Shown one piece after another: positions 35,267-60,140 of a DNA stretch of 61,462 nucleotides. Numbering within the stretch: position 1 is the stretch's first letter; every line of letters starts with the position of its first letter. The stretch spans positions 1-61,462 of IMG/VR virus record IMGVR_UViG_3300034168_000141; one strand, written 5' to 3'. The notes under the pieces were generated by a model, which was not told the DNA's origin, did no database searches, and saw only the letters and a program-made list of their open reading frames with translations. The DNA comes from a virus. Its lineage: Duplodnaviria > Caudoviricetes. Both the position numbers and the translations under genes were made by a program.

Positions 35267-35270
35267 TATA

Positions 35271-38784: not shown

Positions 38785-38813
38785 AATTTCAAAAACCACA
38801 CAATCAAAACACA

Positions 38814-41578: not shown

Positions 41579-41692
41579 AACAATGGACACAAAAGACAAA
41601 ATTTTAGCAGTGATTGGTTTTGTATTATCACTTGCGTTAAACGTTACGATCGTTGGCGGAATTGCCTATATTATTTATCACTTCATTACTAA

Positions 41693-43012: not shown

Positions 43013-43036
43013 AATTATTTAGCATACATTTACAAT

Positions 43037-43461: not shown

Positions 43462-43702
43462 TATTGATTGGCTTATATCTGAATTTGAAAAACAGATTCA
43501 ATTTAGACCTGATTCAGAATTGGATATTTGGTTTAAGGAATTATTTCCAAAAGCTAAAGAACTTCATAAAATGGAAATTGAAAATGCTTATTTAGATGGA
43601 GATTCTAATGGTTGTGGTTGCTACGATTATAGCACAGAACAAGATGCAGAAGAATACTACAATTCAAAAAATTATATAACAGATGGCGCAGAGCAAAACT
43701 AA
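43451..43702 (+). CDS. Hypothetical protein
   Basis: Coupled ORF, CG-poor relative to the rest of B. Confidence 0.65.
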   Translation: MQTSIDWLISEFEKQIQFRPDSELDIWFKELFPKAKELHKMEIENAYLDGDSNGCGCYDYSTEQDAEEYYNSKNYITDGAEQN

Positions 43703-43868
43703 AAAAGGAATATGTGTTTACTTACACAAAGACCTGTGGAATGAGATTGACGAGAAACGTGGGGAGAATAGCCGCAACATTTTTTTAAGCGAAGCTATCC
43801 AGTTCTCAATGAAATTCTACATTCCTGAATCTAAAGTAAAATTGAAAGAACAAACGTCGACAAAATAG
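43683..43868 (+). CDS. Ribbon-helix-helix-like small protein
   Basis: ICVYLHKDLWNEIDEKRGENSRNIFLSEAI pattern. Confidence 0.55.
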   Translation: MAQSKTKKGICVYLHKDLWNEIDEKRGENSRNIFLSEAIQFSMKFYIPESKVKLKEQTSTK

Positions 43869-44406
43869 CGACGGTTGACGTAACGACTAAAGCGTGGTTT
43901 CTGCGCTTTTTTTGTTTCTCTAATTTCTTTTTATCAGCAGCGAGATTGTTAATTTCTTCGGTTAATATGTTTTCCTTCTGTTCATAAGCAACAACCACTT
44001 CTTGTAAGTTGTTTATTTTTTCTTCTTCGATGTTTAATTGTTCTTTTAGGTTGTTAATTACCAATGAATCGGAAGCAATAACGCTATCGCAAGAGTTCAC
44101 CAAAGTGATAACATCAACCCTATTAATAGTATCTCGAATAATAATAGCAGAACGAGTTCTTTTATAGGTGGTTTTGGCTGTAAGTTGAGCATCTTCATAC
44201 GTTCTCAGTTGTTTGTAAAGTTCTATTTGTTCTTGAAGTAGTCGGTCGTATTCGCCAACGTTGTAGTTAATGACGCTATCTTGTTTTTGTACGTTTTCTT
44301 GTACGCTTTTTTTAGGCGTACAACCCCACCAATTCCAACACAACACCAACCAAAGCAAAGACGTTCCAATAAATAGCAGCAATGCCGCAAGTATATTCCT
44401 TCTCAT
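43831..44406 (-). CDS. Putative unimolecular spanin-like protein
   Basis: N-terminal hydrophobic segment with Cys (WWGC), coiled coil, C-terminal TM; end of lysis cassette. Confidence 0.5.
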   Translation of the reverse strand: MRRNILAALLLFIGTSLLWLVLCWNWWGCTPKKSVQENVQKQDSVINYNVGEYDRLLQEQIELYKQLRTYEDAQLTAKTTYKRTRSAIIIRDTINRVDVITLVNSCDSVIASDSLVINNLKEQLNIEEEKINNLQEVVVAYEQKENILTEEINNLAADKKKLEKQKKRRNHALVVTSTVAILSTFVLSILL

Positions 44407-45431
44407 AATATCTGACCTTCGTGTATTCTTAAATTCTTAACGCTGTAACTTCCATTCGTTCCTTTTTCAACAATAGCAAAGCCGTGATTGTACTTCGAAT
44501 ATGGGTTGTAGTCAGGACTTAATTCAGATAAGCAACCAACACCCCAACAAGTGATAAACTTGCCGTTAGCGTCCCTTTCGTTGTGTTCCGCCGTCTGGTG
44601 ATGATGTCCACACAACGCAGAAACTTTTGTCTTCATAAACAATCCACGCGCTACGTTGACCGACGGAAGGAATTGTTTTCCAAACTCATGTCCGTGAAAG
44701 ATTGAAAGTTTACCGATATTCAATTTGCTCTTGCCGTCAATCCAAGTGATGTTGTGTTTGTCTAAATGACACAATGAAGCAAAGTCGAAAGCGTCAATGT
44801 CGAATAGTTCTGGCGCTTTAATACGCATATATCTCCAATATCTTTCTTCGTGGTTTCCTTCCTTATAATAAATGTGAGCTGTTGGAAATTGTTTGCGTAA
44901 CGTATCTACAAACTGACGCATTGCGTACAACTCGTCTTTGAATTTTCTTTTGCGTGGATCTTTGACAAAGTCGCTAATCATGTGACAGTCCAACGCGTCC
45001 CCGTTTAGAATAACCGCGTCGCACCCCTGACGAACACCTTCGTTAATTGCAACCGTTAACGCTTCGTTATCCTGATAAGGAATGTGAACGTCGCAAAGAA
45101 TCAAAAACTTCGTTCCCTTAACCTCAACGTGTCTGCGCTTTTTAGCATACGACTTCGGAAGGGCAAATGGGTTAAGTGGTCGTGGCTTTGCTTCAAACAA
45201 TGACTTGTCCGTTGTTCTCTTTCTTTCAAGGTTACCATGCTTACCACGAATAGTGCGGATAAAGTCACGCGCGTGTTCTTCTGTTGTGTAAACTTCGGGA
45301 TATTCTGCAAACAATTTCTTCGCAAGAGTGAGCGAAGGAGCGTCTTTGAATTTAGAACAAACTTCCTCAGCTATTAATCTCGCTGGTGTTTTCGGTGTTG
45401 CCATTCTTTGCTTGTTTTGTGAATCTCTCAA
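44403..45431 (-). CDS. Calcineurin-like metallophosphoesterase
   Basis: CDVH, NGD, GNHE, FHGH, GHHH. Confidence 0.85.
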   Translation of the reverse strand: MRDSQNKQRMATPKTPARLIAEEVCSKFKDAPSLTLAKKLFAEYPEVYTTEEHARDFIRTIRGKHGNLERKRTTDKSLFEAKPRPLNPFALPKSYAKKRRHVEVKGTKFLILCDVHIPYQDNEALTVAINEGVRQGCDAVILNGDALDCHMISDFVKDPRKRKFKDELYAMRQFVDTLRKQFPTAHIYYKEGNHEERYWRYMRIKAPELFDIDAFDFASLCHLDKHNITWIDGKSKLNIGKLSIFHGHEFGKQFLPSVNVARGLFMKTKVSALCGHHHQTAEHNERDANGKFITCWGVGCLSELSPDYNPYSKYNHGFAIVEKGTNGSYSVKNLRIHEGQIL

Positions 45432-45621
45432 TTACAGTACCACCGAACAATCCTGCGGTCAACAATGCTAATGTGTCAAACATTGCAATGGGACAAACGT
45501 AGGTTGTAAAAGTCGCAACATAGGTGAAAGCAATTAGGTTAATTGTAACAAATATAGCAACAATTCGTTTCGAACTAACTTTTGAACACGAACTTAACAA
45601 AGATATTAACCATTCTTTCAT
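45367..45621 (-). CDS. Putative holin (2 TM)
   Basis: Homologue 13124..13369. Confidence 0.6.
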   Translation of the reverse strand: MKEWLISLLSSCSKVSSKRIVAIFVTINLIAFTYVATFTTYVCPIAMFDTLALLTAGLFGGTVIERFTKQAKNGNTENTSEINS

Positions 45622-45866
45622 ATTAGACGCAAGACAAGTTGAACAATAAGACCACCAACGACACCAGCAGCGGTTGCAATACCACTAAAACGAGCGACTT
45701 GTAAACGTTGGTTTTGAATATACTTGTCGTGTTTTTGAACCTTACTCACAAGACCTTCGATTTTCATTTCGTCATCACCAATAAGAACGTGATAAATGCG
45801 GTCTATCTTCTTATTCATATTCTGCAATTCCTCGTGTATCAAAGCTATCTCGTTTTCGGTGTTCAT
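45618..45866 (-). CDS. Coiled-coil protein with C-terminal TM (holin/antiholin-like)
   Basis: Likely start 45866 (MNTENEI); between lysozyme and holin. Confidence 0.6.
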   Translation of the reverse strand: MNTENEIALIHEELQNMNKKIDRIYHVLIGDDEMKIEGLVSKVQKHDKYIQNQRLQVARFSGIATAAGVVGGLIVQLVLRLI

Positions 45867-45867
45867 G

Positions 45868-46311
45868 TCATTTGAAGTATAGTTGTATTTCTGCCTCTCT
45901 GCGTGTAACCAAACCATTTAAGACTTTACCACCGCCCTTGTTCCAAAGTTTGAAAGAATCTGCAATTGTTGGATCTTGTGGATTGATATTTAATTTCTTA
46001 AACACCGAAGAACGTTTAAAGCCACCCGTACCAATGTTGTACGCAAGTGAAACACACGCGCTAAATTGATTATCGTTGAGTGGTTTCAAAATAAAAGGAG
46101 TGATTGAAACTGCGAACTGGTCAATTATAAACTTCGCTAATTCGTCAGCACGTTGCTGAGTGATTACGTCGCCTTCTTTCACCTTATCTCCGTTCTCGTA
46201 GAAAGTATTTCCAAAGCCAATAGTCCACACGTTTGCAGGACATTTATACGCTTTCAATCTACAACCTTCAAAACGCTTTATTAGAGCGTATCCTTCTGCG
46301 TTAACTTTCAT
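45868..46311 (-). CDS. GH24 phage lysozyme (endolysin)
   Basis: IKRFEGCRLKAYKCPANVWTIGFG...AYNIG...GLVTRREAE. Confidence 0.92.
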   Translation of the reverse strand: MKVNAEGYALIKRFEGCRLKAYKCPANVWTIGFGNTFYENGDKVKEGDVITQQRADELAKFIIDQFAVSITPFILKPLNDNQFSACVSLAYNIGTGGFKRSSVFKKLNINPQDPTIADSFKLWNKGGGKVLNGLVTRREAEIQLYFK

Positions 46312-46432
46312 TCACCAATCTTTTTATTTGTTTCTCTTTTCGAATTAAATACTTACGGAATTTCTCCTCGTAAATCTTTTGCTTAACCATGTCTTTCTTG
46401 CGTCCCCTTGTAGCCATGTTTTGTTTTATTCG

Positions 46433-47005
46433 TTATCTAATCCACCCCAAACCTTGTCTTCTGTAAGTGTATGCGTATCTATCGCGTCCTGTACTAATCT
46501 CAAAAGCGTTGGAAGGGTACACGTTAGTCTGCGACCATATCTGTTGAGTTACGTTTGTCGTGTACTCTGGAAAGTCCGATTGATTAAAACACAAATAGTC
46601 AACCATTCTTTGAGTGTAAAACATAGCTTGTGAACGTGCTTGGTCGCGGTAGTTCTGCAAGTCGGTTTGTGTTATTGGTGTAGTGTCTTCGCTTGTGCGA
46701 ATTACTAAACTTCCGTTATCCGTTTTAACGTACAAATGAGGCAGCATTTCATACAAAGACCACCACATAATCATTCGACGCAAGTAATTGTCAAGAAGGG
46801 TTGCGTATGCGCCCGTGATGTCATCGTTGACAACATCTTCTTTCACTTTGTTATAAAGGTCAGTTCCTAAATACAACTGCGCGTACTTGTCCTGCGACAA
46901 ATAGATAGCAGGGTACATAAGCAACGGATCGACTGAGCCGTTAATCCAACTATATTTTTTTATGTAGTTTTCGTCAATGAGTAGAACTTCGGGTTGTAGT
47001 GCCAT
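46433..47005 (-). CDS. Putative head-tail adaptor
   Basis: Homologue 14173..14748. Confidence 0.55.
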   Translation of the reverse strand: MALQPEVLLIDENYIKKYSWINGSVDPLLMYPAIYLSQDKYAQLYLGTDLYNKVKEDVVNDDITGAYATLLDNYLRRMIMWWSLYEMLPHLYVKTDNGSLVIRTSEDTTPITQTDLQNYRDQARSQAMFYTQRMVDYLCFNQSDFPEYTTNVTQQIWSQTNVYPSNAFEISTGRDRYAYTYRRQGLGWIR

Positions 47006-47008
47006 TTT

Positions 47009-48697
47009 TTATGAGTATTTAATTGAACCTCGTGAGGGTGTGTTAATTGGAGCAACACCTTCAGCTCCTTTTTGCGGTACAAATGGATTGTTACCAACGC
47101 GCTTGTCGTTATTTAATCCGTCGTTAGGAAGTACACGTCCTTTTGAATCTCTTTTACGAATGTAAATTTGACGCTTCCAAAAGTGATGACAAAACGCGCC
47201 ACCTTTCCAAATAAATATGTCGTAGGTGTTTGAACCGCCTGGTCCGAAATCGGGGTTAATGTCGGGATCTTTGCTCATCTTTTCAATATCTTCATATCTA
47301 AAAGACAAACCTGCTTGAGAAATACCTACCATTTCTTGACAAAACTCACGACTATTTTCGCTTAAGTTTTGTGAGTAAGCATAACGTAATTTGTAAAGTC
47401 CTGTGTCGCCAAAAGCAGACCTTTCGTCAGCGTTTGCGTAACTACGAACACTCATATATTCCTGACGGAAATTAGCCTCGTTTTCGGGTTCTGTTACGTC
47501 TTCTTCACTCAACAACTCCCACTCGTCTAAATCGACTAATTCAGCTTTTTCTTTTAGCGCGTTAATCCAAAGACGACCTTGCTCATCTGAAAAATCATTT
47601 TCAGCAGCAACTACTTTTTTTTTTAACTCAGCAGTTTGAACCGTTGGTTGAACAACAACTACTTCGTCGAATACGCTGTTCATTGTGATAGTTAAATCAC
47701 TTCCAAGAATAGGCGCGAATGTATTTGTAATGATTCTTTGGTATGGCTTGATTACTTGATTGTTGAATATCTCCATTCCAACCAACATTTCGTCCTTATT
47801 CGAACCGAATCCTGTTGTATCTCTAATTCCGTGAATCAATGGCGACACAACGCGGTGTCCTACCATGATTTGCTTTGCGGTTTCTTCTGATAAGAACTGA
47901 TATTGTTTGTCAGCGTCCGACAAAGGAAAGTCTTGTATTTGTGGAGCGCGTGTAGGATCTTCGTTGAAAGTCATTAAGAACTTCCCTGCGTTACTTGCAC
48001 CGCTCAATCTTTCTTCCCACTCACGACGTATTGCCTCACGTTCTTCTTTCTGCGGTATTCCGTTTAAGAAGTTAATGATGAATGAAGGAAATAATCCGTT
48101 TAAGATATTGTTGACGTGGTATAGTCCCATTTGATAAGACAACTCAACGTAGTTCAACGCTCCGAAGTAGTCAGGCTTTGCGTAGTACGAAGAACCTGCC
48201 ATCATTCCGTGAGCGTAGATAACTTGACGCGGTTGTTCTTCCGCCTGTGAAGGATTGAATGCAGGAATGAACTCAGGCTTTCCTTTTTTGCTTCGTGAGT
48301 TAGCCCAGTCACGTGAATACCAAATTCCTGTAATGTCATCTTCTTCTTTGTCGTAAGCAAGACGACAGTTCTCAAAAGGCAAGTGGTTGATTTTAACAAC
48401 GCGAGTGAAGTCCATTGACCAAATCACTTCGGCAACAAATGCACCTTGAAGTTTTAAGTCGAACGCAATACCTTGCAATGCGTTGTCGAGAATCGTACCG
48501 GTACCTTTGCCTTCAATCATGTAAGCAATTGAGTTCGTCAATGCGTTGTGAATAGGACTGTTATAATAAAGCGTGATTAGGTGCTGAGGAAATAAGTTGT
48601 TGTAACCGTAGTCAATCCAACCAGCACGGTTCTCTTTTTCAGTTGCTTCAACTGGTTCGTATGCCGATAAGTTAATTGCTTGAATGTTATTTTCCAT
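47009..48697 (-). CDS. Portal protein with C-terminal extension domain
   Basis: Homologue 14760..16766; A10 run at 47615-47624. Confidence 0.8.
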   Translation of the reverse strand: MENNIQAINLSAYEPVEATEKENRAGWIDYGYNNLFPQHLITLYYNSPIHNALTNSIAYMIEGKGTGTILDNALQGIAFDLKLQGAFVAEVIWSMDFTRVVKINHLPFENCRLAYDKEEDDITGIWYSRDWANSRSKKGKPEFIPAFNPSQAEEQPRQVIYAHGMMAGSSYYAKPDYFGALNYVELSYQMGLYHVNNILNGLFPSFIINFLNGIPQKEEREAIRREWEERLSGASNAGKFLMTFNEDPTRAPQIQDFPLSDADKQYQFLSEETAKQIMVGHRVVSPLIHGIRDTTGFGSNKDEMLVGMEIFNNQVIKPYQRIITNTFAPILGSDLTITMNSVFDEVVVVQPTVQTAELKKKVVAAENDFSDEQGRLWINALKEKAELVDLDEWELLSEEDVTEPENEANFRQEYMSVRSYANADERSAFGDTGLYKLRYAYSQNLSENSREFCQEMVGISQAGLSFRYEDIEKMSKDPDINPDFGPGGSNTYDIFIWKGGAFCHHFWKRQIYIRKRDSKGRVLPNDGLNNDKRVGNNPFVPQKGAEGVAPINTPSRGSIKYS

Positions 48698-48699
48698 AG

Positions 48700-49083
48700 T
48701 TATGCACCTGTATAAATTACGTCTACGGGAATCGTAGGCGAAGAAACGTCGAAGTAAATTGTTCCATCTTGAAGTATCATTGAACCACGTTCAACCAAAC
48801 CTACAACGGAAGCGTTTGTTGGATCTAAATTAACCGCGCTGTTTTGTCCGTACACGTCGTACTTATATTTTCCAGCGTCAACAAGACCAACTGTTGTCAA
48901 ACGTATTTTAGTAACACGTTCATTTTCGTTTATGACCTCTACGACCTGACCAAGTTGTTCACCTGTCATTTCGTATGTCATAACAAGAAGGTAATTTGTA
49001 AACGCAACATTGAAGTAAGCACGTCCCTCGTCTAACGAAAGCCATGCGTATTGATTCGCAGTATTTGTATTCAAATAAACCAT
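48700..49083 (-). CDS. Virion structural protein
   Basis: Homologue 16759..17169. Confidence 0.5.
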   Translation of the reverse strand: MVYLNTNTANQYAWLSLDEGRAYFNVAFTNYLLVMTYEMTGEQLGQVVEVINENERVTKIRLTTVGLVDAGKYKYDVYGQNSAVNLDPTNASVVGLVERGSMILQDGTIYFDVSSPTIPVDVIYTGA

Positions 49084-49117
49084 TCTAACTTTTATTTGTT
49101 TGCTAAAATTACATCAC

Positions 49118-49138
49118 AGAGGGACGCTTTGCCCCTCT
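49118..49138 (-). terminator. Hairpin after tail tube gene
   Basis: AGAGGG...CCCTCT inverted repeat. Confidence 0.45.
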
Positions 49139-49156
49139 ATGTGTAAAAGTTTTTTG

Positions 49157-49663
49157 TTAGTCAAGGATTGACAAAGGCGCACCGCTCAATTTGTACGCTC
49201 TTTTTGGAGTTTCGTGTACAAATGCAAGTGTGTATCCGTTCATATCACCTAAAGCTGTTCCTGTCGCTGCTGTTCCTGTTGAAAGGTCAGCACCGAACTC
49301 ATAACCAACAGCCCACCAATTATCGCTGGAATCGTTAACGAAAACCATTGGACGACCTTGTGCAACTGTTTGCAACTCCAAACGCTTTGGAGCGCTCAAT
49401 TTGTTCAACATAACGTTTACCGTCTGCGTGTAGAAAATAGTTCCTGCATCGCGGTTGAAGTTAATTGTTTCTTCAAACGATCCTGTTTGTGTTGGCAATT
49501 CGTATGTGTACAAATCACCTGAGATTGGGCCAACGATAGCAGTAACAATTTCGTTTGCGTCAAAAGTTAACGAAGTAACCGTGTCGCAAAGAATGATTTT
49601 CTTAATACCACCGATGCCGTCTTTGCAATCGAGTGTGAAACCTGTGCTTAATTCACATGCCAT
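49157..49663 (-). CDS. Major tail tube protein (putative)
   Basis: Homologue 17194..17742. Confidence 0.65.
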   Translation of the reverse strand: MACELSTGFTLDCKDGIGGIKKIILCDTVTSLTFDANEIVTAIVGPISGDLYTYELPTQTGSFEETINFNRDAGTIFYTQTVNVMLNKLSAPKRLELQTVAQGRPMVFVNDSSDNWWAVGYEFGADLSTGTAATGTALGDMNGYTLAFVHETPKRAYKLSGAPLSILD

Positions 49664-49686
49664 ATTATTAATGTTTTTATTAGCAC

Positions 49687-49720
49687 AAAAGAGGGGTGGT
49701 TTTTATGCCACCACCTCTCT
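49687..49720 (-). terminator. Terminator after major capsid gene
   Basis: GAGG-GGTGG...CCACC-ACCTC hairpin with a U run on the minus strand. Confidence 0.65.
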
Positions 49721-49746
49721 ATATGCAAGGGTTAGAATGGTTGAGA

Positions 49747-50649
49747 TTAGGCAGTATATTGGTAGAACGCGATTTCGTTTCCGAATCCGTATTGTACACC
49801 TGCGAAGAAAGACGCTGCGAAACGTACGTTGTCAGAAAGGTCGTATTGGTACATATCTAAAACCGCTACGTTGTTCCATTGGTCAAGTAAGTTAGTACCG
49901 AACCAAAGGTTTGATTTTTGGTAAAACGCCATTGTGTCGTCGCTCATTCCAGGACATTCGATAACGTCGTATTGTCCCTGCCAGTTCATTACAACTGATT
50001 CACCTTGATACAAGTAGTATCCACCACCAAGACCAAGAATTGCGCTTCTGTATGCTTCAGCAACATTTGAAGAAACTGCGATAACAGGCTTTTCAGTAGC
50101 ACGACGAACGCGTGTTGGAAGTGTCAAAACAAGTTTACCCATTTCCTCGATTACGTTTGCAGAAGTGATTGCCTCTGGAGCATCAACGTCAAGAACATCT
50201 CCGTCAGCTAAGAACAAAGTTTCGAAACCTGCGTACTCACCAGCGTTAGCGTTAACACCCTGCCATATCAATACTTCGTTGCGTGCTGCAACACCCGCCA
50301 ATACGTTAGCGATTAAAGCGTCAGTCAATGAAGCGTGAAGGAATCCGTCTTGCTCAGACTTAGCTTCCCAATCAGTCAAGAAATCTTTCTTGCAAAGTTG
50401 ACGGTGAACTTGGAATTTCTCCAAAGTCAAGATACGCTCTGTAAGAGTAACAGTTCCAGTTGGTGTGAAGTCACAAGTCGCGTTTGCGAAAGTGATAGAA
50501 TCAACTAATTTGCGAACAACTTGCTTGTACTCGATGTTCTCTTTGAAAGTAACAGCAGCAAGTGATTCGTTGCTTAAAAACGCAGCGCGGATATATCCTG
50601 CTGCTTCGCGACCTGCGTAGGTCGTAGTTAATGAAGTGGTAGTAGCCAT
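49747..50649 (-). CDS. Major capsid protein
   Basis: Homologue 17829..18752. Confidence 0.8.
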   Translation of the reverse strand: MATTTSLTTTYAGREAAGYIRAAFLSNESLAAVTFKENIEYKQVVRKLVDSITFANATCDFTPTGTVTLTERILTLEKFQVHRQLCKKDFLTDWEAKSEQDGFLHASLTDALIANVLAGVAARNEVLIWQGVNANAGEYAGFETLFLADGDVLDVDAPEAITSANVIEEMGKLVLTLPTRVRRATEKPVIAVSSNVAEAYRSAILGLGGGYYLYQGESVVMNWQGQYDVIECPGMSDDTMAFYQKSNLWFGTNLLDQWNNVAVLDMYQYDLSDNVRFAASFFAGVQYGFGNEIAFYQYTA

Positions 50650-50665
50650 TTTTTATTTTGTTTTT

Positions 50666-51235
50666 TTATTTTTTTAAGTGAAATAAGAAGCGTTCTTCTG
50701 CTGACATTTTATTGTAGCTTTTTGAAGGTGCGCTTACTTTTGATTGTTTAACTTCTTTGATTGATGTTGCCGCAGGTTGTGCGCTCAACTTCTCTACGTT
50801 AGCAGAAAGTTCGGTGTTTGCCTTCTTGATGTCGGCAAGTTCGCTTTCTAATTTAGCAACCAAAGACAAAAGACCTTCAACCTCTGCGTTGAATGTGTCC
50901 TCAACAACAACTTCCGTTGATTGTTCTTCTTCGATTGTTATTTCAACCTCTGGTTCTTCAACCATTGGCTTCAATTCAACAAGTAGTCCGTCAGTAACAA
51001 CTACAATAACCCCTTCGGCTGTTGTGTATTCTCCGTCCGCTACAACAACTTCGTTGCCTTCTGCGTCTTTTGCGAATACACGAACTCCAGGCGCCCATGT
51101 GTCGCTGTCTGAATAGATGCTTGTTCCGTCCTCTAATACCGCTTCAACCATTTGCTTAACCTCAACTACTTCTTCAGCAGATAGGCTTACATTGTGCTTT
51201 GCGAAAAGAGCGTTAACTTTTTCTCTTAAGTTCAT
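50666..51235 (-). CDS. Putative scaffold protein
   Basis: Start 51235 (MNLREKVNALFAKHNVSLS) aligns with the start of the A homologue. Confidence 0.6.
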   Translation of the reverse strand: MNLREKVNALFAKHNVSLSAEEVVEVKQMVEAVLEDGTSIYSDSDTWAPGVRVFAKDAEGNEVVVADGEYTTAEGVIVVVTDGLLVELKPMVEEPEVEITIEEEQSTEVVVEDTFNAEVEGLLSLVAKLESELADIKKANTELSANVEKLSAQPAATSIKEVKQSKVSAPSKSYNKMSAEERFLFHLKK

Positions 51236-51278
51236 ATAAGTGTTTATTAAATGTTTAGTTCCTAAATAGAAAAACCTG

Positions 51279-51286
51279 TATATTTG
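51279..51286 (+). promoter_or_regulatory. -7 element TATATTTG driving a plus-strand non-coding transcript
   Basis: Consensus box on the non-coding strand, terminator ~47 nt downstream. Confidence 0.65.
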
Positions 51287-51290
51287 TTTC

Positions 51291-51363
51291 ACAATTCGGC
51301 TTTTCATAGTTGATTTTGATTTTTAGGTTTGACGAGGGGAGTAGTTACCCCTCGTTTTTTTTT
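51291..51363 (+). ncRNA. Candidate trans-acting sRNA complementary to early-gene translation initiation regions
   Basis: Core TTTTCATAGTTGATTTTGATTTTTAGGTTT, then ACGAGGG..CCCTCGT hairpin and T run; near-complementary to 37653-37673. Confidence 0.6.
51332..51363 (+). terminator. Intrinsic terminator
   Basis: ACGAGGGG-agtagtta-CCCCTCGT followed by a T run. Confidence 0.8.
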
Positions 51364-51538
51364 ACCCTAAAGAATCCAATATCGTGTTTAGCGTCTTCAT
51401 TTCGTCGTCGGTCAATCCGTAAGACTTGAACCCCATTTTACCGCCATCGTCCGTTATCTTGGTGAGTGCGTTGAGAAACAGGGTAGCATCGTCGTTGAAT
51501 AGTTCGACCTTTAAGAACCCCCCTGCTTCTATGTTCAT

Positions 51539-52129
51539 TTAATCCTCTTTCAAAAGGTCATTTAGTTCTTCAAGAATGGCAGCAAACTCGTCGTGTGAGT
51601 GCAAATACATTTCTTTCTCAACTTCAAATTTTCCTTCGATTGAGAAACCCAACACTTCTTTGTTTTGTATCTGCTGTTTCACTTCTTCGTTGTCCACTTT
51701 CATGCAACCGAACCACGTTCCTTCTGGAAGGTCGAAGCCGAAGTTCTTTGACTTGTCGTTTTCGCCTTCAATGATCCACGTTTCCACCAAAGAAACACCG
51801 TCAACCACTTTCGCGTGTTCAACTGTTGCGTTGTTGGTCATGTTTTGCTTTAAGTAGTTGTAAGCAATTGAGCGAATGGTGTCCTTTGAATACTTAACGT
51901 AGTATTCTTCATTCGTCTTGTCGTCACGTCGGTAGATTAGTTGGTCAGGAATCAATAGAGCGCCGTATAAAAGACCTCTAAAATCTTCTTTGAACTTTAC
52001 CGTATGTTGTTCGCTTAACGCAACGAAATCGACACCTATTGCAGGTTGTTCTACCACGCTGATTGCGAATACTCCGAGCGAACCTTCGTCGTCCACTCCG
52101 TATTCAATAACTTTAATTTTTTTGTTCAT
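51539..52129 (-). CDS. XkdF-like prohead serine protease
   Basis: AISVVEQPAI...GALLIPD...VETW...GTWF...GFSIEG. Confidence 0.75.
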   Translation of the reverse strand: MNKKIKVIEYGVDDEGSLGVFAISVVEQPAIGVDFVALSEQHTVKFKEDFRGLLYGALLIPDQLIYRRDDKTNEEYYVKYSKDTIRSIAYNYLKQNMTNNATVEHAKVVDGVSLVETWIIEGENDKSKNFGFDLPEGTWFGCMKVDNEEVKQQIQNKEVLGFSIEGKFEVEKEMYLHSHDEFAAILEELNDLLKED

Positions 52130-52133
52130 GTTT

Positions 52134-54029
52134 TTATCCTCCTAATCGTGATTGGTTTTGAATTAACTGTTGTGCTTCTAAGTTGCTTGACACTTGACCG
52201 CCTAAGACGTACGCTTGCAATGGTGGTTGTTGGTTGGGTTGCTGACTGATAAAGTCGTAGTTAGCAGGGGAAGGTGCTGTTGTTCCACCACTTGCGCTTG
52301 GTACACTTCCACCGCCACCACCACCACTTGTTCCACTTGTTCCTTGAAATTGTTGTTTGCTTATAATGGCGACACGCGCAAGACCTTGTGCTATTGCTAT
52401 TCCTGCTGCTATTGCTGCACGAACAGGTGCGTCTGGTGTACTAATAGCCATTTGCGAACGATACGCTCCTTGTGCGGCAAGATATGTGTCTATGGTAGCT
52501 GTTGCTATACTTACACCCTTTTGTATTGCAAATGCTTTCTTCTGTTGCGCTTCAGACTTTCCTGCAAATGCCGCTGCTAAATCTCCAATGATTGATAAAG
52601 ACGTTTTTAATGCGTCAACGCGAAGTTGTGCTTTTGCTGCTTCCGCTTGTCTTAATTCTTCAAGTTCTTCTTGTGTATGTATAGATTTTAAGGCGGTAAG
52701 ATTTGCATGTGACTGCATTTCGGCAAGAAGTTTTGCATCTGCTTTTTTCTTTTCTCTTGCCTTTAAATCTTCGTAGCTAATAGATGCCATTCTATCATCT
52801 TCAGCCATCATTTCGTCGTTTAATTTTTTACGACGTTCTAACTCATCTTTATCTGATTGTTCTTGCAAACGTTTCTTTTCATCTTCTTCTTTTTCTCTTG
52901 CAGTTTTTGCTGCTTTAGTTCTTTCATGAATTGCTTTTACTTCGGTGTCAATAGTAGCTAATACCGCAGAAGATGCTTCTTGTTCAAGATATGCTATTCT
53001 TTGAGTAGATTCTTCTAAATCTAAAGCAGCTTTTCCTATTCCTTCTGTACCATTGTACCATTCACTTATATTTTGGTTTGTTTCTTTAAATAATGTTTGT
53101 GTATTAAATCTTGCTGTTTCTACTGCTTTATCAAATTCTTGTTGAGTTAATTTTCCTTTTTTAGCAGCAAGTTCTTGTTCTAACGCTATTTTCTTTGCAT
53201 ATTCTTGTTCTAATAATCCTTTTGCTGCATTTGCTTTTGCTTCTTTTTTTATGTTGTCAATTAACTTTACTTTTGCTGCATTTAACGCTTCTGTATCGTT
53301 AATATCTCCATTGATATTTGAGAAGTATGCTGGATACATATCTTCTAAATCACTCAATGCTTTTCTTCTTTCTTTTTCTGTTAAATTATGGTCTTGAACT
53401 CTTTGAGTTAATATCTCAATTTGAGCAATATTTTCTGCTCCTTTTGCAAGTTCTTGTTTTGTTGCTTCATTTAAATCATTAGTAACTCTTGTAAGATTTT
53501 GTTGTTCTATTGAAGTTTGTTTTGACCATGTAGCAATTTCTTTCCAATTGTAAGCAATAGCAGCTAAAACACCAACAGTTAAAAAGAAAGGATTAGATAC
53601 AACAGAAGCAGCAAGATTTCCTAAACCTTTAACTAATCCTCCTACTTCTTCTTTAATTGTTTTAAAATCTATTTTTCGAACCGCTGTTCCCATTCCTGTA
53701 AGCGCTTGTCCTGCGCCTTTCAAGTCCAAGTCCATAAGACGTGAACCGAACAAACCAACGTTGTTAGAAAGACCTTCGAAGGCGTTACCAGCGTTAGCAC
53801 TAATCTCTGCGCCTAAGTCGGAAATGTTGTCCTTCAACTCAGCAGCACGTGCAGACGCTTTTTTGAACGCGTCGCTCGTTTGATCCATCGTGAGCAACTG
53901 ATTATTCAGCGCACGAAGTTCAGCCTTTGCGCTCTTGAATCCTGTCGCCGTATTGTCCGCAGCGTTTGCGGTTTGGTTGAGGATATTAACCGCATTTGTG
54001 CTTACGTTGAAATCTATTGTATTCGCCAT
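52134..54029 (-). CDS. Tape measure protein
   Basis: Ends homologous to 20113..22281. Confidence 0.7.
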   Translation of the reverse strand: MANTIDFNVSTNAVNILNQTANAADNTATGFKSAKAELRALNNQLLTMDQTSDAFKKASARAAELKDNISDLGAEISANAGNAFEGLSNNVGLFGSRLMDLDLKGAGQALTGMGTAVRKIDFKTIKEEVGGLVKGLGNLAASVVSNPFFLTVGVLAAIAYNWKEIATWSKQTSIEQQNLTRVTNDLNEATKQELAKGAENIAQIEILTQRVQDHNLTEKERRKALSDLEDMYPAYFSNINGDINDTEALNAAKVKLIDNIKKEAKANAAKGLLEQEYAKKIALEQELAAKKGKLTQQEFDKAVETARFNTQTLFKETNQNISEWYNGTEGIGKAALDLEESTQRIAYLEQEASSAVLATIDTEVKAIHERTKAAKTAREKEEDEKKRLQEQSDKDELERRKKLNDEMMAEDDRMASISYEDLKAREKKKADAKLLAEMQSHANLTALKSIHTQEELEELRQAEAAKAQLRVDALKTSLSIIGDLAAAFAGKSEAQQKKAFAIQKGVSIATATIDTYLAAQGAYRSQMAISTPDAPVRAAIAAGIAIAQGLARVAIISKQQFQGTSGTSGGGGGGSVPSASGGTTAPSPANYDFISQQPNQQPPLQAYVLGGQVSSNLEAQQLIQNQSRLGG

Positions 54030-54235
54030 TATGAGAGTAGTTTATAAAGTATAAATATCCAAAACGCTACGTTTAACGAAATACGTGTCACTTTCCAAGC
54101 GTAGTGCTTCCACATTTCCAACTTACGTTTGCCGTTAGCCATTATTCCGCTCTCGCCTTTTGTCTTGATATTCAACTTAATGAACTCTAAACAAGCGACC
54201 ATTGAGTGTGCTTTATTTTGAAAATTATTTATCAT
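54029..54235 (-). CDS. Small membrane protein
   Basis: C-terminal TM; syntenic with 22281..22478. Confidence 0.6.
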   Translation of the reverse strand: MINNFQNKAHSMVACLEFIKLNIKTKGESGIMANGKRKLEMWKHYAWKVTRISLNVAFWIFILYKLLS

Positions 54236-57084
54236 GCTCTTTCGATTATTGCGTTAACAACAGACGCTGTATTTGCGGTGAAAGCAATAGCACTTCCAAC
54301 CGCTATATTGTTTCCTAAAGTATAAGCACTTCCGTCGTCGGTAATGGTTACAACAGGACTATTCTTTACGTTGTCAATCTTGTTAATGATTAAGTCGTAA
54401 GGAGCGAAAACGGTAGCCGTTAAACTGCTCATGAAGTCAATAGTCCACGTTATCGTGTTGTCGTTTTCGCTATCAATCTTCCAGTTGCTGCCGTCGCTCA
54501 CCAAAGTCACGACACTACCGCTTGTTTTTATTGTGTACGTTATTGCGCTTTCAATCTTTTGCCCTGTGTATGCGTGAAGCGTTGCGCCATAATCGTCGCT
54601 TGCTAATTTTATGCTGATGATTGTCCCTCTCGTTGTTTGTGCAGAAGGAAGGTAAACATCAATATCTGCGGCTAAGTCAGTAAGTAAAATCGTTCTGTCG
54701 AAATTAGTCACTACATAATCGGTACTTATTGACCTTACTGGCTGCGATACCGACGCGTTAAAGCTCACAGGCGCACCGAAGCGTGTTGGTGCTAACGTTG
54801 GTGCTTCTGCCGTAATGAATGAACGTGTGCCGATGTTTGGAACAGAGAAACAATTATTCTTCGCAGAGTTCCAATAGTAGCCAAAGCGACGACAACAATC
54901 TTCGGTGACTACCGCAGGATCTCCGTTTGGTGTTTCCCAATTTATTGTTTGGTCAAGATTGGCGGTGATAGGTAAAATGTCGCAGTCGTTGTCTATGTCC
55001 AAAATACGAATAAGTTTTACCTTTGTCATGTTTTGCTCACCTACAACGTAGCCTTCGATGTCTAACACTCTCCACCATGAATCAACAATCCATATTTTAT
55101 CTGACCATTGAAAAGTAAATATGTCGTTTAGTGTTAGTGCAAACATACCCTCTAATATGCGCGCTTGTCCGTCGTATAACTCGCGGTAATAGTTACGCCA
55201 CCAACGGTTGTAAAGGTTGTTGTATGGGGGCGCTATGATTGTGTGAAGTGGTACTTCGGGTGCAAAGTTTAAGTCTGAATCTCCGACACTTGCGTTCATT
55301 GTCGAATAGTTATTCAAACACTTAACAGCCGTTTGCACTACTGTATTTGTAACCTCATCGTACATATTCACGAAGAAGTCAGCGAAGTAATAAAGTATGC
55401 GTGGTTTTGGTTGCACGAATTGACCTTCGCCATTGATGAAACGAGGAACTACAACGTCAGTATTCTCAACCGCCCGTGAAGGTGTTGGTGCAAATGCTAA
55501 CTCAACCTTTTCTTCTCCAGTTGCAAACTCGTTGATTACTTCAAAGTCGTTCTCCGTTACTTCGTAGCTTCCGAAGATATGACCGTTGTCTTTGTAGACG
55601 TTGTTGTAATAGTCTGAATCTTCGGTGTACGTGAAGGTGAACTTAGCCTTTTGAAGGTCGGTTGTTGGATAGTACGTTATGTCTTTTGAAAGGTCGAGTT
55701 TCTCCGTCCAATCTAACGTGTTACCGCTTCCGATATATTCAACAAGTGGTTCAATGCGTAATGTGTTTGGAAGTGTGCGGTCGGGAACGAAGGCAAGGTT
55801 GAACATCTTTTGAATAGACGTGATAAAGTCTATTTGCTTCATGTCTGGAGCGTTGTATTCCATAACACACGCATCACCTGTTAAAGATGTTCCAATGCTT
55901 ACAATTTCCAATCCTGTTCCAAAAGAATCTACTGCTCCCGTTCCGAATAAATCAACGTCCCAAGTAAATGTTCCTGCGGTTGAATCTTGTGGAAGTATTT
56001 GCAACTTGAATTTTACTTGTTGTCCTGCATTAAATGCAAAAGTTTGCGTTGTATCTAAATAAAACAAATAACTTGTTTGAAGCAATTCGTAGTCATAAGT
56101 AAACACATCGTCAACATAAACCAAAACACGCAAAGGATAGTTTCCAAAATCCTCTCCATTCAAAGTATTTACTCTGCCGTGAGCAGTAATGCGAAAAGAG
56201 TATTGTGCGGAATATGGAACAGTAAATACTCCAGCACTCCAATTTGCACCTGCATCTTCATATTCAGTTAGTGCGCTGTATAAATTATAAATGTTGTTTG
56301 AAGGTGCAAATGTTAATCCGTTAACGTTAGACGCTACTGCTAAATTTGCAGCGTTATCGTTTAGCCCAAGTGTTGCGTTCAAATACTGACCATTGACAAA
56401 TGGAACATACACGTGTTCAAGACATTCGGTCAATGTATTACTTGCCCATTGAACTCCTGCGTCTTTAAGTATCTCGTCGAACAGATATTGAGCCCTCACG
56501 GCAGGTGTCAAGTGTCCTACTTTAAGCGAATTAGGAATATCAGAAGAATAAATTACTTGTCCCTCTGTGTTTGTTGCTGTTAAGTTCCACTTATCGCAAA
56601 GCGTCAATATCGTGTGTGCGTTAGGCGGTGTTCCCACGTTAGCGTGAAGCAAGTCGTAGTCCAAGTCACCTGCAACGATGCTCTCAATATCGCGTAGTTT
56701 CTTTTCATTTAATAAACGTGAAAGGTTAGGTACTTCACCGAAGAAAACAACTTCAAATTCAAACAATTTTCCACTCTGCCAATAAAGTTTTTTCACTTGA
56801 ATGTGACCACTTGCTATTGGGATAGTGTTAACCGTTAAGTTCGCAGTCACCTTCTTACGGAAGTCAAACCACCCGTTGAAGTTAACGTTGAAGATAGCAC
56901 CGAAGAAGTCTACGTTTGTCGCGCTTGCTGGTATGCGAAACTCCTGCGAGTAGTTACCGACAGAACTAAAGTTCGTGAGATCCGTGAACTTATAGTTGAG
57001 GTGCATTTTCTCATTCTCGTAAAGGTCAATCGTTGACGCGTTGCCGTTGCTATCGGTCAGCGTTAGTATTACTTCGTTCATCAT
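54232..57084 (-). CDS. Large minor tail / tail tip protein
   Basis: Homologue 22475..25546. Confidence 0.7.
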   Translation of the reverse strand: MMNEVILTLTDSNGNASTIDLYENEKMHLNYKFTDLTNFSSVGNYSQEFRIPASATNVDFFGAIFNVNFNGWFDFRKKVTANLTVNTIPIASGHIQVKKLYWQSGKLFEFEVVFFGEVPNLSRLLNEKKLRDIESIVAGDLDYDLLHANVGTPPNAHTILTLCDKWNLTATNTEGQVIYSSDIPNSLKVGHLTPAVRAQYLFDEILKDAGVQWASNTLTECLEHVYVPFVNGQYLNATLGLNDNAANLAVASNVNGLTFAPSNNIYNLYSALTEYEDAGANWSAGVFTVPYSAQYSFRITAHGRVNTLNGEDFGNYPLRVLVYVDDVFTYDYELLQTSYLFYLDTTQTFAFNAGQQVKFKLQILPQDSTAGTFTWDVDLFGTGAVDSFGTGLEIVSIGTSLTGDACVMEYNAPDMKQIDFITSIQKMFNLAFVPDRTLPNTLRIEPLVEYIGSGNTLDWTEKLDLSKDITYYPTTDLQKAKFTFTYTEDSDYYNNVYKDNGHIFGSYEVTENDFEVINEFATGEEKVELAFAPTPSRAVENTDVVVPRFINGEGQFVQPKPRILYYFADFFVNMYDEVTNTVVQTAVKCLNNYSTMNASVGDSDLNFAPEVPLHTIIAPPYNNLYNRWWRNYYRELYDGQARILEGMFALTLNDIFTFQWSDKIWIVDSWWRVLDIEGYVVGEQNMTKVKLIRILDIDNDCDILPITANLDQTINWETPNGDPAVVTEDCCRRFGYYWNSAKNNCFSVPNIGTRSFITAEAPTLAPTRFGAPVSFNASVSQPVRSISTDYVVTNFDRTILLTDLAADIDVYLPSAQTTRGTIISIKLASDDYGATLHAYTGQKIESAITYTIKTSGSVVTLVSDGSNWKIDSENDNTITWTIDFMSSLTATVFAPYDLIINKIDNVKNSPVVTITDDGSAYTLGNNIAVGSAIAFTANTASVVNAIIERA

Positions 57085-58316
57085 AAGCCAACAGGTTGTG
57101 AGTATTTAAGGTTCAAAGTAACGTTGTAAAGTTTCGAATATCTTTCGTCCTTGATAACAAAGTTTTGAGTGTCGACAAGAACAGGTGTCAGCGTTGCGTC
57201 GTCGTTGATTATAAACACGTCGTTGGAACGACAAAGCGTTTGCAATAATTCAAACTCTCCAACGGAAACCCAGTCGCTATTTATTTGTAGTCCTTTCGTT
57301 GTCTTAACGTAGCGGTCGGTTGTTCCCCTGTCCCATGTGTTGAATGAAAACGTTGCAGCGTTGTATTGACCTACTACTTTTTGGTATTGTTTGCGGTCGT
57401 AGTTATACGATAGTTCCGACTTCTTCGTGAAGTTGAAGTAATCCACACCGCCGCAAGTGTTTGTCCAACCCAAACGCACGTTGTCAAAGCGACAATCATC
57501 AGCGACAATATAAAAACAATAGACGCGTGAAGCAGGTGTGTAAACGGGGAAGGCAATTTCTTTTCCAAATTGTATTGTGTAGTATTTAGCACCTGTCAAG
57601 TCTATTCCTGTCGCAGCGACGTTTTGATAAAATGCAGCTACTATGTTAACAACAGAATCATTGTTGCCTATTGCAATTGATATTGTATCAATCAAAGTAT
57701 TTGTGTTGTCGTAGGTCGTAATTACGGCAATGTCGAAGTCATTATCTATAAGCAATGTGGTATAAGAAGGAGCGTACAAAACACCGTAGTCAGCTAATCG
57801 AGTAGGAATATAAACCCAATCGTTAGATAGTCCGCGTGCGCTTGCTTCAATCCATTTGTGCGTATCTGTTGTGCGTTCACTCATTGCGTATTTCGTGATG
57901 CCGTCTAACGCGTAACGTGTGTTTGGGTTTGGTTTATATCCGTCGCTTACTTGATATTCAGCAAGGAAAGCAAAAACGTCGTCAATGTCAGCCATTCCTG
58001 CGCCACTAACGGTGAACACTCCGTCAATCAACCAACCTTCTTTTATTGTGCATGAGATAAACGCTACGCTGGTGTTCTCTGTTCCTGTTGTTTGGAAGTG
58101 TTCGTTCGCTTCGTGTTGTAGTTGCTCACGAAATATCGGAGCAAGGTCTAAAATACCTTTGTTTGAAGCGTTAGGTTGCACGTTGACTTGGAACGCACCG
58201 AAGTCAAACACAAAACGAAAGCCTGTATTTGCGACGTTGGTTGAACTGCACACGATCATCAGCCGTTGTCCGATAGGTGTGTATTGGTATGGTTGTTCGT
58301 TTATTGTAATTGCCAT
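57081..58316 (-). CDS. Minor tail protein (distal-tail-like)
   Basis: RLGWTNTCGGVDYFNFTK. Confidence 0.6.
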   Translation of the reverse strand: MAITINEQPYQYTPIGQRLMIVCSSTNVANTGFRFVFDFGAFQVNVQPNASNKGILDLAPIFREQLQHEANEHFQTTGTENTSVAFISCTIKEGWLIDGVFTVSGAGMADIDDVFAFLAEYQVSDGYKPNPNTRYALDGITKYAMSERTTDTHKWIEASARGLSNDWVYIPTRLADYGVLYAPSYTTLLIDNDFDIAVITTYDNTNTLIDTISIAIGNNDSVVNIVAAFYQNVAATGIDLTGAKYYTIQFGKEIAFPVYTPASRVYCFYIVADDCRFDNVRLGWTNTCGGVDYFNFTKKSELSYNYDRKQYQKVVGQYNAATFSFNTWDRGTTDRYVKTTKGLQINSDWVSVGEFELLQTLCRSNDVFIINDDATLTPVLVDTQNFVIKDERYSKLYNVTLNLKYSQPVGL

Positions 58317-58321
58317 ATTTG

Positions 58322-58924
58322 TTAAATGTCTTTTAGTTGGTTTTCTAAAACTGCGTTAAAGTCTTTTCCGTATGCTTCGACCACCTTCGCTTCGTACTCG
58401 TCCCAAATGTTTTCAAAGGCATATTCAAATGCGTTCCACCCCTTGATACCGTCACGACGAACCTTGAACATAATGAGTTTCGCAACCTGTTGTTTTAAGT
58501 CCTCTGTTGATTTCTTAAACTTTCCGCTACTCTTATCGCGTAGTCGTATTCCCTTAATTGTCATCCAGTCGTAGATGCTTTTCTGCATTGGCGACATTTG
58601 ACCTTTCGCAGGTTTGCTTCCGCTTCCTTTCTTAAATGAGTAGGGTGCGCCTTGCGACTTGCTCGTTCCATTCACACCCTTTTCACGAAACAGGAAGTAT
58701 TGTCCTGCCTTGCCTTTTGCGTACACCGCGACGTTTATCTCTTTGCCTTTAATCTTCAATCGATAAGTTAACGACTTTTCAAGCGTACCACTTGCTACCG
58801 CGTTGGTGAAGTTGCGTCCCACCTTTCGCTTCATGCGATAGTCGGACTGCATCAACTCAACAAAGCGTTTCGCCATGTCGTTGACCACAGCGAAGAAGTT
58901 GGGTGCGCTCTGTTCGTTAGGCAT
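58322..58924 (-). CDS. Putative tail completion protein
   Basis: Homologue 26832..27455. Confidence 0.5.
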   Translation of the reverse strand: MPNEQSAPNFFAVVNDMAKRFVELMQSDYRMKRKVGRNFTNAVASGTLEKSLTYRLKIKGKEINVAVYAKGKAGQYFLFREKGVNGTSKSQGAPYSFKKGSGSKPAKGQMSPMQKSIYDWMTIKGIRLRDKSSGKFKKSTEDLKQQVAKLIMFKVRRDGIKGWNAFEYAFENIWDEYEAKVVEAYGKDFNAVLENQLKDI

Positions 58925-59147
58925 TAGCTTTTAATGCTTCAACAAATAAATTAATATCTGTATATTTTGAATCGTTAATAGTACAAGAAAGGTCAAGTAA
59001 GATTAAGCCACTTGTGGTTGAGATTAATGCTTGACTGCTGCTTATTATTTCATTTTCTCCTTCGAAAGTATATTCGATTGAATTGAAAATAAATCCGTTT
59101 TGTGTTGTTTCTATATTCATATTAAATATATTTAGTTGCCCTTGCAA
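58917..59147 (-). CDS. Small fibre-partner protein, copy 2
   Basis: LLDLSCTINDSKYTDINLF; paralogue of 59840..60139; probable start at MNIETT. Confidence 0.65.
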   Translation of the reverse strand: MQGQLNIFNMNIETTQNGFIFNSIEYTFEGENEIISSSQALISTTSGLILLDLSCTINDSKYTDINLFVEALKANA

Positions 59148-59847
59148 ATTTAATCACTGCGCTATCACTTGAATTAGTTAATTGAATTGAAAATAATAAA
59201 TAATATGATGTATTTGTATTGTATGTTATATTACTAACACTTCCAGCAATACTAAAATCTCCCAAAGTCGCTGTATTTGCTTGAATAGTGCTTAAAGTAT
59301 TACTCTTTATACTCATATTTCTTATGGATTGAAAAAATTGAGAATTAGTATTTACTAATGTAGCTATCAATGTTGCTCCTGTTATAGTATTTGATGTATT
59401 CAAATAAATGCGGATTGCAGCGTTTCCTGCGCTACCTGTTTTTAACGCTCTTGTTATTATTTCAAGCATTCCGCTTGTGGTAAAAGTATTTGCAGCAATT
59501 AACATTGATTTAGACAACGTATCTGCGGTTGTTCCCGTTACAACTGTGCCGTCAGTTATATCTAATGAAATGACTGACGGATTACTGCTTCCACCAACTA
59601 CTAAATCACCACTTCCTAAAACCGAACTTCCATTAATGGTTTTGATGTTAGTACCACTAACAAGAGCTGCCTGTTTTGCGTTGAAGGTAGCCCAATCCGT
59701 AGCCGATAAATAACCGTCAACCAAACTGGTAGCAGCAGGCATACTGATAGCAGGTGTCGCTCCACCTGACGACACAACAGGTGCTGTCCCTGTTACGGAA
59801 GTTACACCACTCGCAGCCGCTGCTTTTATGTAGACGTTGTTAACCAT
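59122..59847 (-). CDS. Short second fibre protein
   Basis: LVSGTNIKTINGSSVLGSGDLVVGGSSNPS plus C-terminal domain paralogous to that of 60141..61421. Confidence 0.7.
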   Translation of the reverse strand: MVNNVYIKAAAASGVTSVTGTAPVVSSGGATPAISMPAATSLVDGYLSATDWATFNAKQAALVSGTNIKTINGSSVLGSGDLVVGGSSNPSVISLDITDGTVVTGTTADTLSKSMLIAANTFTTSGMLEIITRALKTGSAGNAAIRIYLNTSNTITGATLIATLVNTNSQFFQSIRNMSIKSNTLSTIQANTATLGDFSIAGSVSNITYNTNTSYYLLFSIQLTNSSDSAVIKFARATKYI

Positions 59848-60139: not shown

Positions 60140-60140
60140 G

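Follow-up and report, generated by a model that had tools for sequence, protein, structure and literature searches.

Between two head genes that are read from the minus strand, the viral contig analysed here carries on its plus strand a promoter-like box, a conserved core and a terminator-like hairpin, an arrangement which raises the question of whether 51279-51363 is the gene of a small RNA running against the head operon and, if so, what such an RNA would pair with. Small RNAs encoded by phages are known in a few models that infect enterobacteria and pseudomonads. To our knowledge, the hosts of the phages concerned here possess neither Hfq nor ProQ, and no Shine-Dalgarno-led initiation. In the literature searched, no small RNA of a Bacteroidota phage was found described, and neither 'Bacteroid' nor 'capsid' occurs in the available text of a review (PMC12197685).

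The feature is most likely a real small-RNA gene and would represent a new family of a known general kind. More specifically, we put at about even odds (roughly 0.5) the reading that 51279-51363 encodes a motif-dependent small RNA of ~70 nt, which would pair in cis and would probably have a target in trans as well.

The window, i.e. the whole stretch of DNA that was analysed, is a viral contig of 61,462 bases with a terminal repeat of 106 bases, and its first 106 bases are found again at 31116. A tail-fibre gene segment of ~910 bases occurs in it in two copies of 90-97% identity, and annotation with PHROGs revealed two gene sets which are complete, syntenic and diverged. Related complete genomes are single and measure 30.2-31.9 kb. 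Two complete gene sets, together with relatives of 30-32 kb, imply that the window consists of two genomes joined via the shared tail-fibre segment, and the two-genome view taken in the initial annotation is thus borne out by the gene sets, the shared segment and the size of the relatives alike. The two genomes are named phage A (1-31115) and phage B (31116-61356). Junctions of the two ~30 kb genomes lie at 1-179, 30385-31294 and 60626-61462; the join is probably an assembly chimera, and it may be a natural recombinant dimer.

Several signals in the sequence point to a Bacteroidota host. The nearest cultured relatives of the portal protein are those of Nonlabens and Bacteroides phages (24-30% identity), the leaders of the window are 48% A, a Shine-Dalgarno-like motif is present in 5 of 89 genes, and TAnnTTTG boxes are enriched in non-coding DNA, with 18 of the 84 boxes falling within 6% of the bases (p = 2e-6).

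Architecture and conservation of the cassette

The initial annotation had described a promoter box, a core and a terminator on the plus strand, antisense within the head operon; all three are located where it placed them, between the 58-aa gene and the scaffold-like gene (Table 1), and they are conserved as a cassette. The box TATATTTG occurs in four copies on the plus strand of the window, all in promoter-like places (5864, 36709, 37639 and 51279). In Flavobacterium the sigma-A box occupies -12 to -5 relative to the transcription start, according to the available text of PMC9723704, which is the reason for placing the predicted start at 51291. The U-rich, unstructured stretch of ~40 bases extends to 51330, and the hairpin which follows is the best terminator-like site found on the plus strand in a scan of 44000-61462; its T9 run extends into the stop codon of the 58-aa gene upstream. 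The fold of the cassette RNA has a z-score of -4.75, and none of 200 shuffles folded equally well.

Table 1. Features of the cassette, its surroundings and the related cassettes, in window coordinates
Feature	Position	Strand	Basis or remarks
Sigma-A -7 box TATATTTG (consensus TAnnTTTG)	51279-51286	+	Perfect Bacteroidota sigma-A box, by sequence match
-33-like element TTTA (TTTG in some relatives)	51254-51257	+	21 nt upstream of the -7 box
Predicted small RNA, ~70 nt: unstructured 5' part of ~40 nt and terminator	51291-51363	+	Start predicted from the box
Conserved single-stranded core TTTGATTTTTAGGTTTG, candidate seed	51315-51331	+	Block entropy 0.156; unpaired in the consensus fold
Intrinsic terminator: hairpin 51331-51356, then T9 run 51355-51363	51331-51363	+	9 pairs, 6 of them G-C
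Scaffold-like gene, conserved start ATG 51235	50666-51235	-	Codon-position variation and alignment with phage A
Upstream ATG with leader-like A-rich stretch, not the conserved scaffold start	51305-51307	-	Variable frame
58-aa gene, stop codon inside the terminator T run	51362-51538	-	ORF
Best candidate trans target: sigma-A box 37639-37646, 5'UTR and start codon of gene 37671-37961	37639-37673	+
Phage A cassette paired with the present one in the initial annotation	5864-5957	+	TAT[A/C]TTTG box, two hairpins, terminator
Phage A gene-sense structured RNA cassette with the core motif	4135-4226	-	TACATTTG box 4226-4219, terminator near 4135

A search of IMG/VR with the scaffold protein recovered 185 relatives, and the 80 loci kept from these yielded 63 distinct spacer sequences, a count which overstates the number of independent events, the genomes being closely related to one another. 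Every one of the 63 sequences retains the box, a purine at 51291 (the predicted start), the core TTTGA(T)TTTTAGGTTTG, a hairpin whose changes are compensatory and a run of T7-T10. Read on the sense strand, all 63 sequences show the stop of the 58-aa gene followed by an A run, the hairpin, CAAACCTAAAA(A)TCAAA and a variable portion of ~8 nt, beyond which come (T)ATGAAAA (ATA in 3) and GAAACAAAT[n]TAC; the latter corresponds to GTA[n]ATTTGTTTC on the plus strand, i.e. the -7 box, and one n position is all that varies in it. The box accordingly reads TA[T/G/C/A]ATTTG throughout (63/63), with T in 42 sequences, G in 9, C in 8 and A in 4. As the box overlaps an open frame and its variable base falls at the third position of a codon there (Ile/Met), its conservation could in part have another cause. 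The -33-like element begins with three T's in all 63 sequences (AAA on the sense strand), and its fourth base is A in 54 and G in 9; the spacing of 21 nt from TTT[A/G] to the box is the same in both, quite different, types of spacer. The box has a block entropy of 0.115 and the core one of 0.156, whereas the synonymous sites of the flanking genes reach 0.42 and 1.12.

Strand-specific signals favour an RNA of the plus strand, a conclusion which the sequence comparison supports. The stem exists in versions that stay paired (CGAGGGG/CCCCTCG, CGGAGGG/CCCTCCG and CGGGGG/CCCCCG), and its G-U pairs are possible on the plus-strand RNA only. Moreover, the T run after the hairpin has a length of 7-10 in 52 of 52 aligned sequences, and the terminator hairpin is the sole consensus structure of the cassette RNA. 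The plus-strand RNA also folds more stably than its complement in 52/52, in a test which inherently favours the U/G-rich strand.

No match at gathering thresholds was obtained when the whole window was searched against Rfam 15. Short sub-threshold matches on the plus strand run across the core and the terminator, namely to AniS (RF02274; 25.2 bits against a gathering threshold of 50), the Bacteroidetes FopS (RF04319; 17.1 against 56) and rteR (RF04181; 16.9 against 72), and this likeness is that of a generic small RNA with a terminator, without family membership.

The RNA data comprised assembled contigs of relatives from two freshwater metatranscriptome runs (0.07 and 0.05 of sampled words). 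On 41500-61400 these contigs fall mostly within 49064-51234 and are sparse upstream, and they show neither strand nor ends; among the contigs listed none bridges 51240-51360, a gap over the spacer which carries no evidential weight. Their concentration on 49064-51234 is as expected if the scaffold and capsid messages are the most abundant.

The core motif and its candidate partners

According to the preferred reading, the host sigma-A RNA polymerase would read 51279-51363 from the plus strand, antisense to the head operon, with transcription beginning near 51291 and stopping at the hairpin and U-run of 51331-51363. The working part would be the most conserved stretch, UUUGAUUUU(U)AGGUUUG, located in the unstructured U-rich 5' part, and it would pair with A-rich, leader-like RNA. 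In cis, it would always meet the perfectly complementary head-operon transcript between the 58-aa and scaffold genes, while in trans it would probably have at least one further target, the best phage candidate being the 5'UTR of the early gene 37671. We infer the production of this RNA, its start point and its binding partners from sequence. If it is made, it would be a conserved example which is simple to test, in uncultured freshwater phages of an abundant group.

A resemblance to early start regions was recorded in the initial annotation, where the reverse complement of the core, AAACCTAAAAATCAAAATCAACT-ATG-AAAA, was compared with sites at 37653-37673, 40812-40825, 36983-37004 and 38802-38820. 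The reverse complement and the four sites are as described there, and the sense copy of the core does resemble the early start regions of phage B: in sequence similarity, the pair which it forms with the 37671 leader ranks second of 4005 leader pairs, with a score of 16 against a mean of 5.7 (sd 1.56), and is outranked only by the pair of the two orthologous capsid leaders. Four of the best five leader partners of the sense core belong to early plus-strand genes. Furthermore, the exact 12-mer CTAAAAATCAAA is present only in the cassette and in the 37671 5'UTR, and the duplex predicted for the small RNA with this 5'UTR has an energy of -23.0 kcal/mol. The island CTAAAA(A)TCAAA of the 5'UTR is readable in 14 related genomes; in 13 it is unchanged apart from the A4/A5 run, and one genome has a single C-to-T substitution. 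The A4/A5 run of the 5'UTR matches the T4/T5 run of the RNA in 10 of the 14, one pair having the same length with a substitution and three being discordant, a concordance in B-type genomes which is suggestive but not significant, and these genomes are kin.

The initial annotation had gone further and proposed that each core fits the leaders of its own genome, as if by co-evolution. This was not supported by the energy tests, in which no preference for cognate over non-cognate start regions emerged: the mean duplex energies were -12.19 for the phage B RNA with B start regions and -12.51 with those of A, and -14.0 for the phage A RNA with A start regions and -13.74 with those of B. Of 48 decoy RNAs taken from other leaders 9 equalled the cassette RNA, as did 21 of 200 shuffles, and start regions were paired no better than coding interiors (-12.19 vs -12.42). 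With the core alone, the 37671 site came approximately ninth genome-wide, behind sites within genes. When cognate and swapped pairs of small RNA and 37671 5'UTR were compared over the 14 genomes, the energies were -14.99 and -14.46 kcal/mol, and 1190 of 5000 permutations were at least as good (p ~0.24). The duplexes, being rich in A and U, are weak, and such sequences are low in complexity. No homolog of 37671 was found in phage A when an ortholog was sought, and no match to the 37671 product or to the 58-aa protein was obtained in PHROGs or Pfam.

Counts of core-like words in the window were also obtained. AAACCTAAA was rejected as a shared DNA motif, with 23 matches at up to one mismatch against 31.6 expected. 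Elsewhere in the window, a core-like 16-mer has 3 matches at up to two mismatches against 0.74 expected, a borderline excess that 5 of 100 shuffles reach. CAAACCTAAAAATCAAA has 5 matches, compared with 0.64 expected in whole-window shuffles, a control which is too lenient because the early region is locally A-rich. The leader of a small ORF of phage B was discarded as a target, being variable among 16 relatives.

The main indication that the motif has a role of its own comes from phage A. The initial annotation had joined 5864-5957 with 51279-51363 into a single system. A covariance model of the phage B cassette, which scores 126.6 bits on itself, misses 5864-5957 in a search at E <= 10 with filters off, and the pairing of the two was consequently dropped. 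The 5864-5957 cassette is conserved in 62 distinct relatives, both of its hairpins show compensatory changes, and its plus-strand RNA is more stable than the complement in 53 of 53. A gene-sense promoter stands back to back with it, and DnaA-box-like repeats separate the two. In the cassette RNA, the invariant block UUGAUUA(U)UUGAUU shows complementarity at 12 of 13 positions to the 5'UTR of the small ORF 12412-12296; an extra U in the RNA and an extra A in this 5'UTR were compared over 22 genomes, of which 19 have neither, 2 have both, 1 has the U only and none the A only, a co-occurrence that may be a single evolutionary event. TAAACCAAAA, in the leader of gene 8744-9487, was rejected as a target of the hairpin loop, as it is not conserved in 4 of 5 relatives.

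Around this cassette, 5789-5871 holds two sigma-A boxes back to back: on the minus strand TAATTTTG (5800-5793) and on the plus strand TATATTTG (5864-5871). The repeats between them conform to the DnaA-box consensus, and one of these, TTAT[T/G]CACA, varies only at 'N' among 53 relatives. A DnaA C-terminal helix-turn-helix domain is present in a protein of both phages (39752-40282 in phage B), and the region may be an origin or a regulated switch. The small ORFs 12296-12412 (minus strand, 38 aa) and 36998-37111 (plus strand, 37 aa) are homologous, both beginning with MKK.LL followed by a hydrophobic stretch. Both are below usual gene-calling lengths; the phage A copy is preceded by a TACATTTG box of its own and by a 5'UTR that hardly varies.

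The core motif recurs instead in the gene-sense cassette 4135-4226 of phage A, which carries GAUUUGAUUUAAGGUUUU mid-RNA with GATTTGATTTAAGGTTTT as its central motif. In the RNA of this cassette, conserved in 28-31 distinct relatives, a 5' helix pairs with the RNA's own terminator loop; at least 5 compensatory versions of this pairing exist, and in some A-type relatives the motif is identical to the B-type core over 14-15 nt. A single copy of the 13-mer TTGATTTWAGGTT is present in each of 43 B-type loci, where it invariably runs antisense to the scaffold gene, and in each of 34 A-type loci, where it invariably lies in a cassette of the 4135-4226 type; it occurs nowhere else in 216 loci. As the 13-mer is thus found in an antisense cassette in one case and in a gene-sense cassette in the other, the motif follows the RNA, as delimited by its promoter and terminator, irrespective of how the flanking genes are oriented. 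It is on these grounds that the U-rich sequence is argued to act beyond pairing with its own template, and mainly for this reason that a motif-dependent role is ranked above a purely cis one.

A further-reaching proposal, which is tentative and rather improbable, would have a portable seed, UUGAUUU(U/A)AGGUU, carried on unrelated RNA scaffolds (antisense in the head operon of B, pseudoknotted and gene-sense in A) and silencing the A-rich 5' leaders of the phages' own early genes, e.g. 37671, or those of host genes; with its perfect complement, the late head-operon transcript would then serve as a sponge and end the silencing late in infection. If one seed is indeed shared by two unrelated RNA scaffolds, this would suggest that seeds, and not whole RNAs, move between these phages.

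Some observations on neighbouring regions may be added. At the positional counterpart of 4135-4226 in phage B (35278-35195, minus strand) the architecture is the same and the core motif is absent. Both cassettes, 4135-4226 and 35195-35278, are downstream of sigma-factor genes, and the terminator-loop pairing is pseudoknot-like. The 649 bases of 3614-4262 in phage A contain no ORF of 50 aa or more, and the single Rfam match there, to Betaproteobacteria-1, is weak and sub-threshold (28.6 vs 49.4 bits). In a spacer of phage B, two copies of TTACTAAACCATTACGAAA form a tandem direct repeat (32825-32872).

Comparison with known small RNAs

In E. coli the cis-antisense RNA GadY, located in an operon spacer, directs processing. 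Like GadY, the predicted cassette RNA is antisense and lies in a spacer between co-directional genes, where pairing could split a polycistronic message.

Among phage antisense small RNAs, the sar RNA of P22 (68/69 nt) and the OOP RNA of lambda (77 nt) are treated in the available text of PMC12197685. With these the predicted RNA shares a length of ~70 nt, a promoter of its own inside a phage operon, an orientation against the flanking genes and an intrinsic terminator. The opposite-strand promoter is present in the cassette at the level of the motif, and a discrete terminator in 52/52 sequences. Both sar and OOP pair with the overlapping message, and so would the cassette RNA, which is perfectly complementary to its own. 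There is no sequence or Rfam relationship between them. Furthermore, the cassette differs from sar and OOP in its Bacteroidota sigma-A promoter, in its location in a head-gene spacer and not in an immunity region, and in overlapping a leader-like stretch and not the conserved start of the downstream gene.

For action in trans, the closest comparison is with GibS of Bacteroides thetaiotaomicron, a trans-acting RNA with an unstructured extended seed which pairs around the start codons of mRNAs lacking a Shine-Dalgarno sequence, as described in the available text of PMC7366714. Both RNAs have a largely unstructured, A/U-rich 5' part followed by a terminator. According to the same text, GibS is chromosomal and intergenic and its targets are shown by experiment, whereas the cassette RNA has candidate targets for which the energy tests were negative. 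The cassette RNA does have a conserved single-stranded seed and, in the 37671 5'UTR, a conserved complementary site in a start region; pairing above controls, with cognate preference and co-variation, was not found for it.

The scaffold start and alternative explanations

The initial annotation had cautioned that the ATG complemented by the core (51307) is in frame with the scaffold gene, and that the cassette might therefore exert cis-antisense control at the scaffold start. The frame is confirmed, ATG 51307 being in frame with the ORF 50666-51307, and the caution itself proved half right, in that 51307 is not the conserved start, which is 51235. On the 3' side of 51235 variation falls at third codon positions, bar one synonymous first-position change, whereas in the 19 codons on its 5' side all three codon positions vary about equally (11, 8 and 10 of 19). 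Moreover, in the alignment M1 of the phage A scaffold falls on residue 21 of the long ORF. The even variation and the phage A start together imply that 51235-51307 is either a non-coding spacer or a leader ORF whose peptide is irrelevant.

Among the 63 sequences the 51307 codon is an in-frame ATG in 45, an out-of-frame ATG in 15 and ATA in 3, and an out-of-frame ATG opens a short frame of its own that closes within ~20 nt of the scaffold ATG. In all 63, however, some upstream ATG or GTG opens a frame which runs into the scaffold ATG, so that ribosome loading at the leader-like site stays a viable idea. The predicted RNA ends 55 nt short of 51235 and has no overlap with this conserved start; it takes in the stop codon of the 58-aa gene as well as the upstream ATG, spanning -23 to +17 of ATG 51307. 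A type I toxin-antitoxin pair formed by the 58-aa gene and the antisense RNA was discarded, the protein being acidic and hydrophilic by eye and the overlap being limited to the stop codon.

These relations bear on the possibility that the RNA acts purely in cis, which we regard as unlikely. It would then pair with the head-operon transcript only, either blocking ATG 51307 as a ribosome loading site for scaffold translation or creating an RNase III site which uncouples the scaffold/capsid mRNA from the upstream tail/protease genes. This is the mode of P22 sar, lambda OOP and E. coli GadY, the complementarity is perfect by construction, the RNA covers the surroundings of the upstream ATG, and in 63/63 some ATG or GTG opens a frame that reaches the scaffold ATG. 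Yet the RNA does not reach the conserved scaffold start, and the upstream ATG is replaced by ATA or out of frame in the sequences counted above. The pile of contigs on 49064-51234, sparse upstream, would fit a transcript boundary in the spacer, but contigs cannot rank expression. Above all, the sequence of an RNA that acts in cis only has no need to be conserved for its own sake, and the core is nevertheless strongly constrained and recurs in a phage A RNA which is antisense to nothing.

More doubtful still is an explanation in which no working RNA is made and the box and terminator are signals at the level of DNA. The antisense promoter would compete with or block sense transcription, for instance through overlap with a late promoter for the phage ECF-like sigma factor (GAAAC-N17-TATTTA, 51290-51263 on the minus strand), or the terminator would stop stray antisense transcription. 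An ECF-like sigma factor is indeed encoded by both phages (phrog_1740; the Pfam Sigma70_r4 match is weak and below cut-off), GAAAC and TAT.TA are conserved on the sense strand at a spacing of 17 nt, and the RNA contigs of relatives become abundant near the scaffold start; in addition, random promoters are common in low-G+C genomes, as stated in the available text of PMC7366714. However, GAAAC-N16-18-TA[T/A].TA has 4 matches in the window, and only that of the cassette is upstream of a late gene, so that the pattern marks no other plausible late promoter. Signals of this kind would explain neither the conserved core between box and terminator nor the presence of the motif in an RNA of the opposite genomic orientation.

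The least probable explanation, which we consider very unlikely, takes ATG 51307 (or the GTG/ATG five codons later) as the scaffold start, the core as its A-rich leader and the hairpin as an mRNA stabiliser or the 3' end of the upstream message, without any antisense RNA: it agrees with the open frame from 51307, with an in-frame upstream ATG or GTG in 63/63 and with tblastn matches to residues 1-213 in many loci, but it is at odds with the even variation of the 19-codon extension and the phage A start at residue 21, with the run of 7-10 A's before the hairpin, which has no role on the sense RNA and is the U-tract of the plus-strand terminator, and with the G-U pairs of the stem, which would be A-C mismatches on the sense RNA.

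Other terminator-like sites were noticed near capsid-like genes. In phage A, 17743-17828, after the capsid-like gene, has a plus-strand TATCTTTG box at 17769-17776 directly before a possible bidirectional terminator hairpin, which may be another very short antisense unit or due to chance. On the minus strand, the capsid-like gene and the one after it are each followed by a terminator-like hairpin in gene sense (49115-49141 and 49695-49712).
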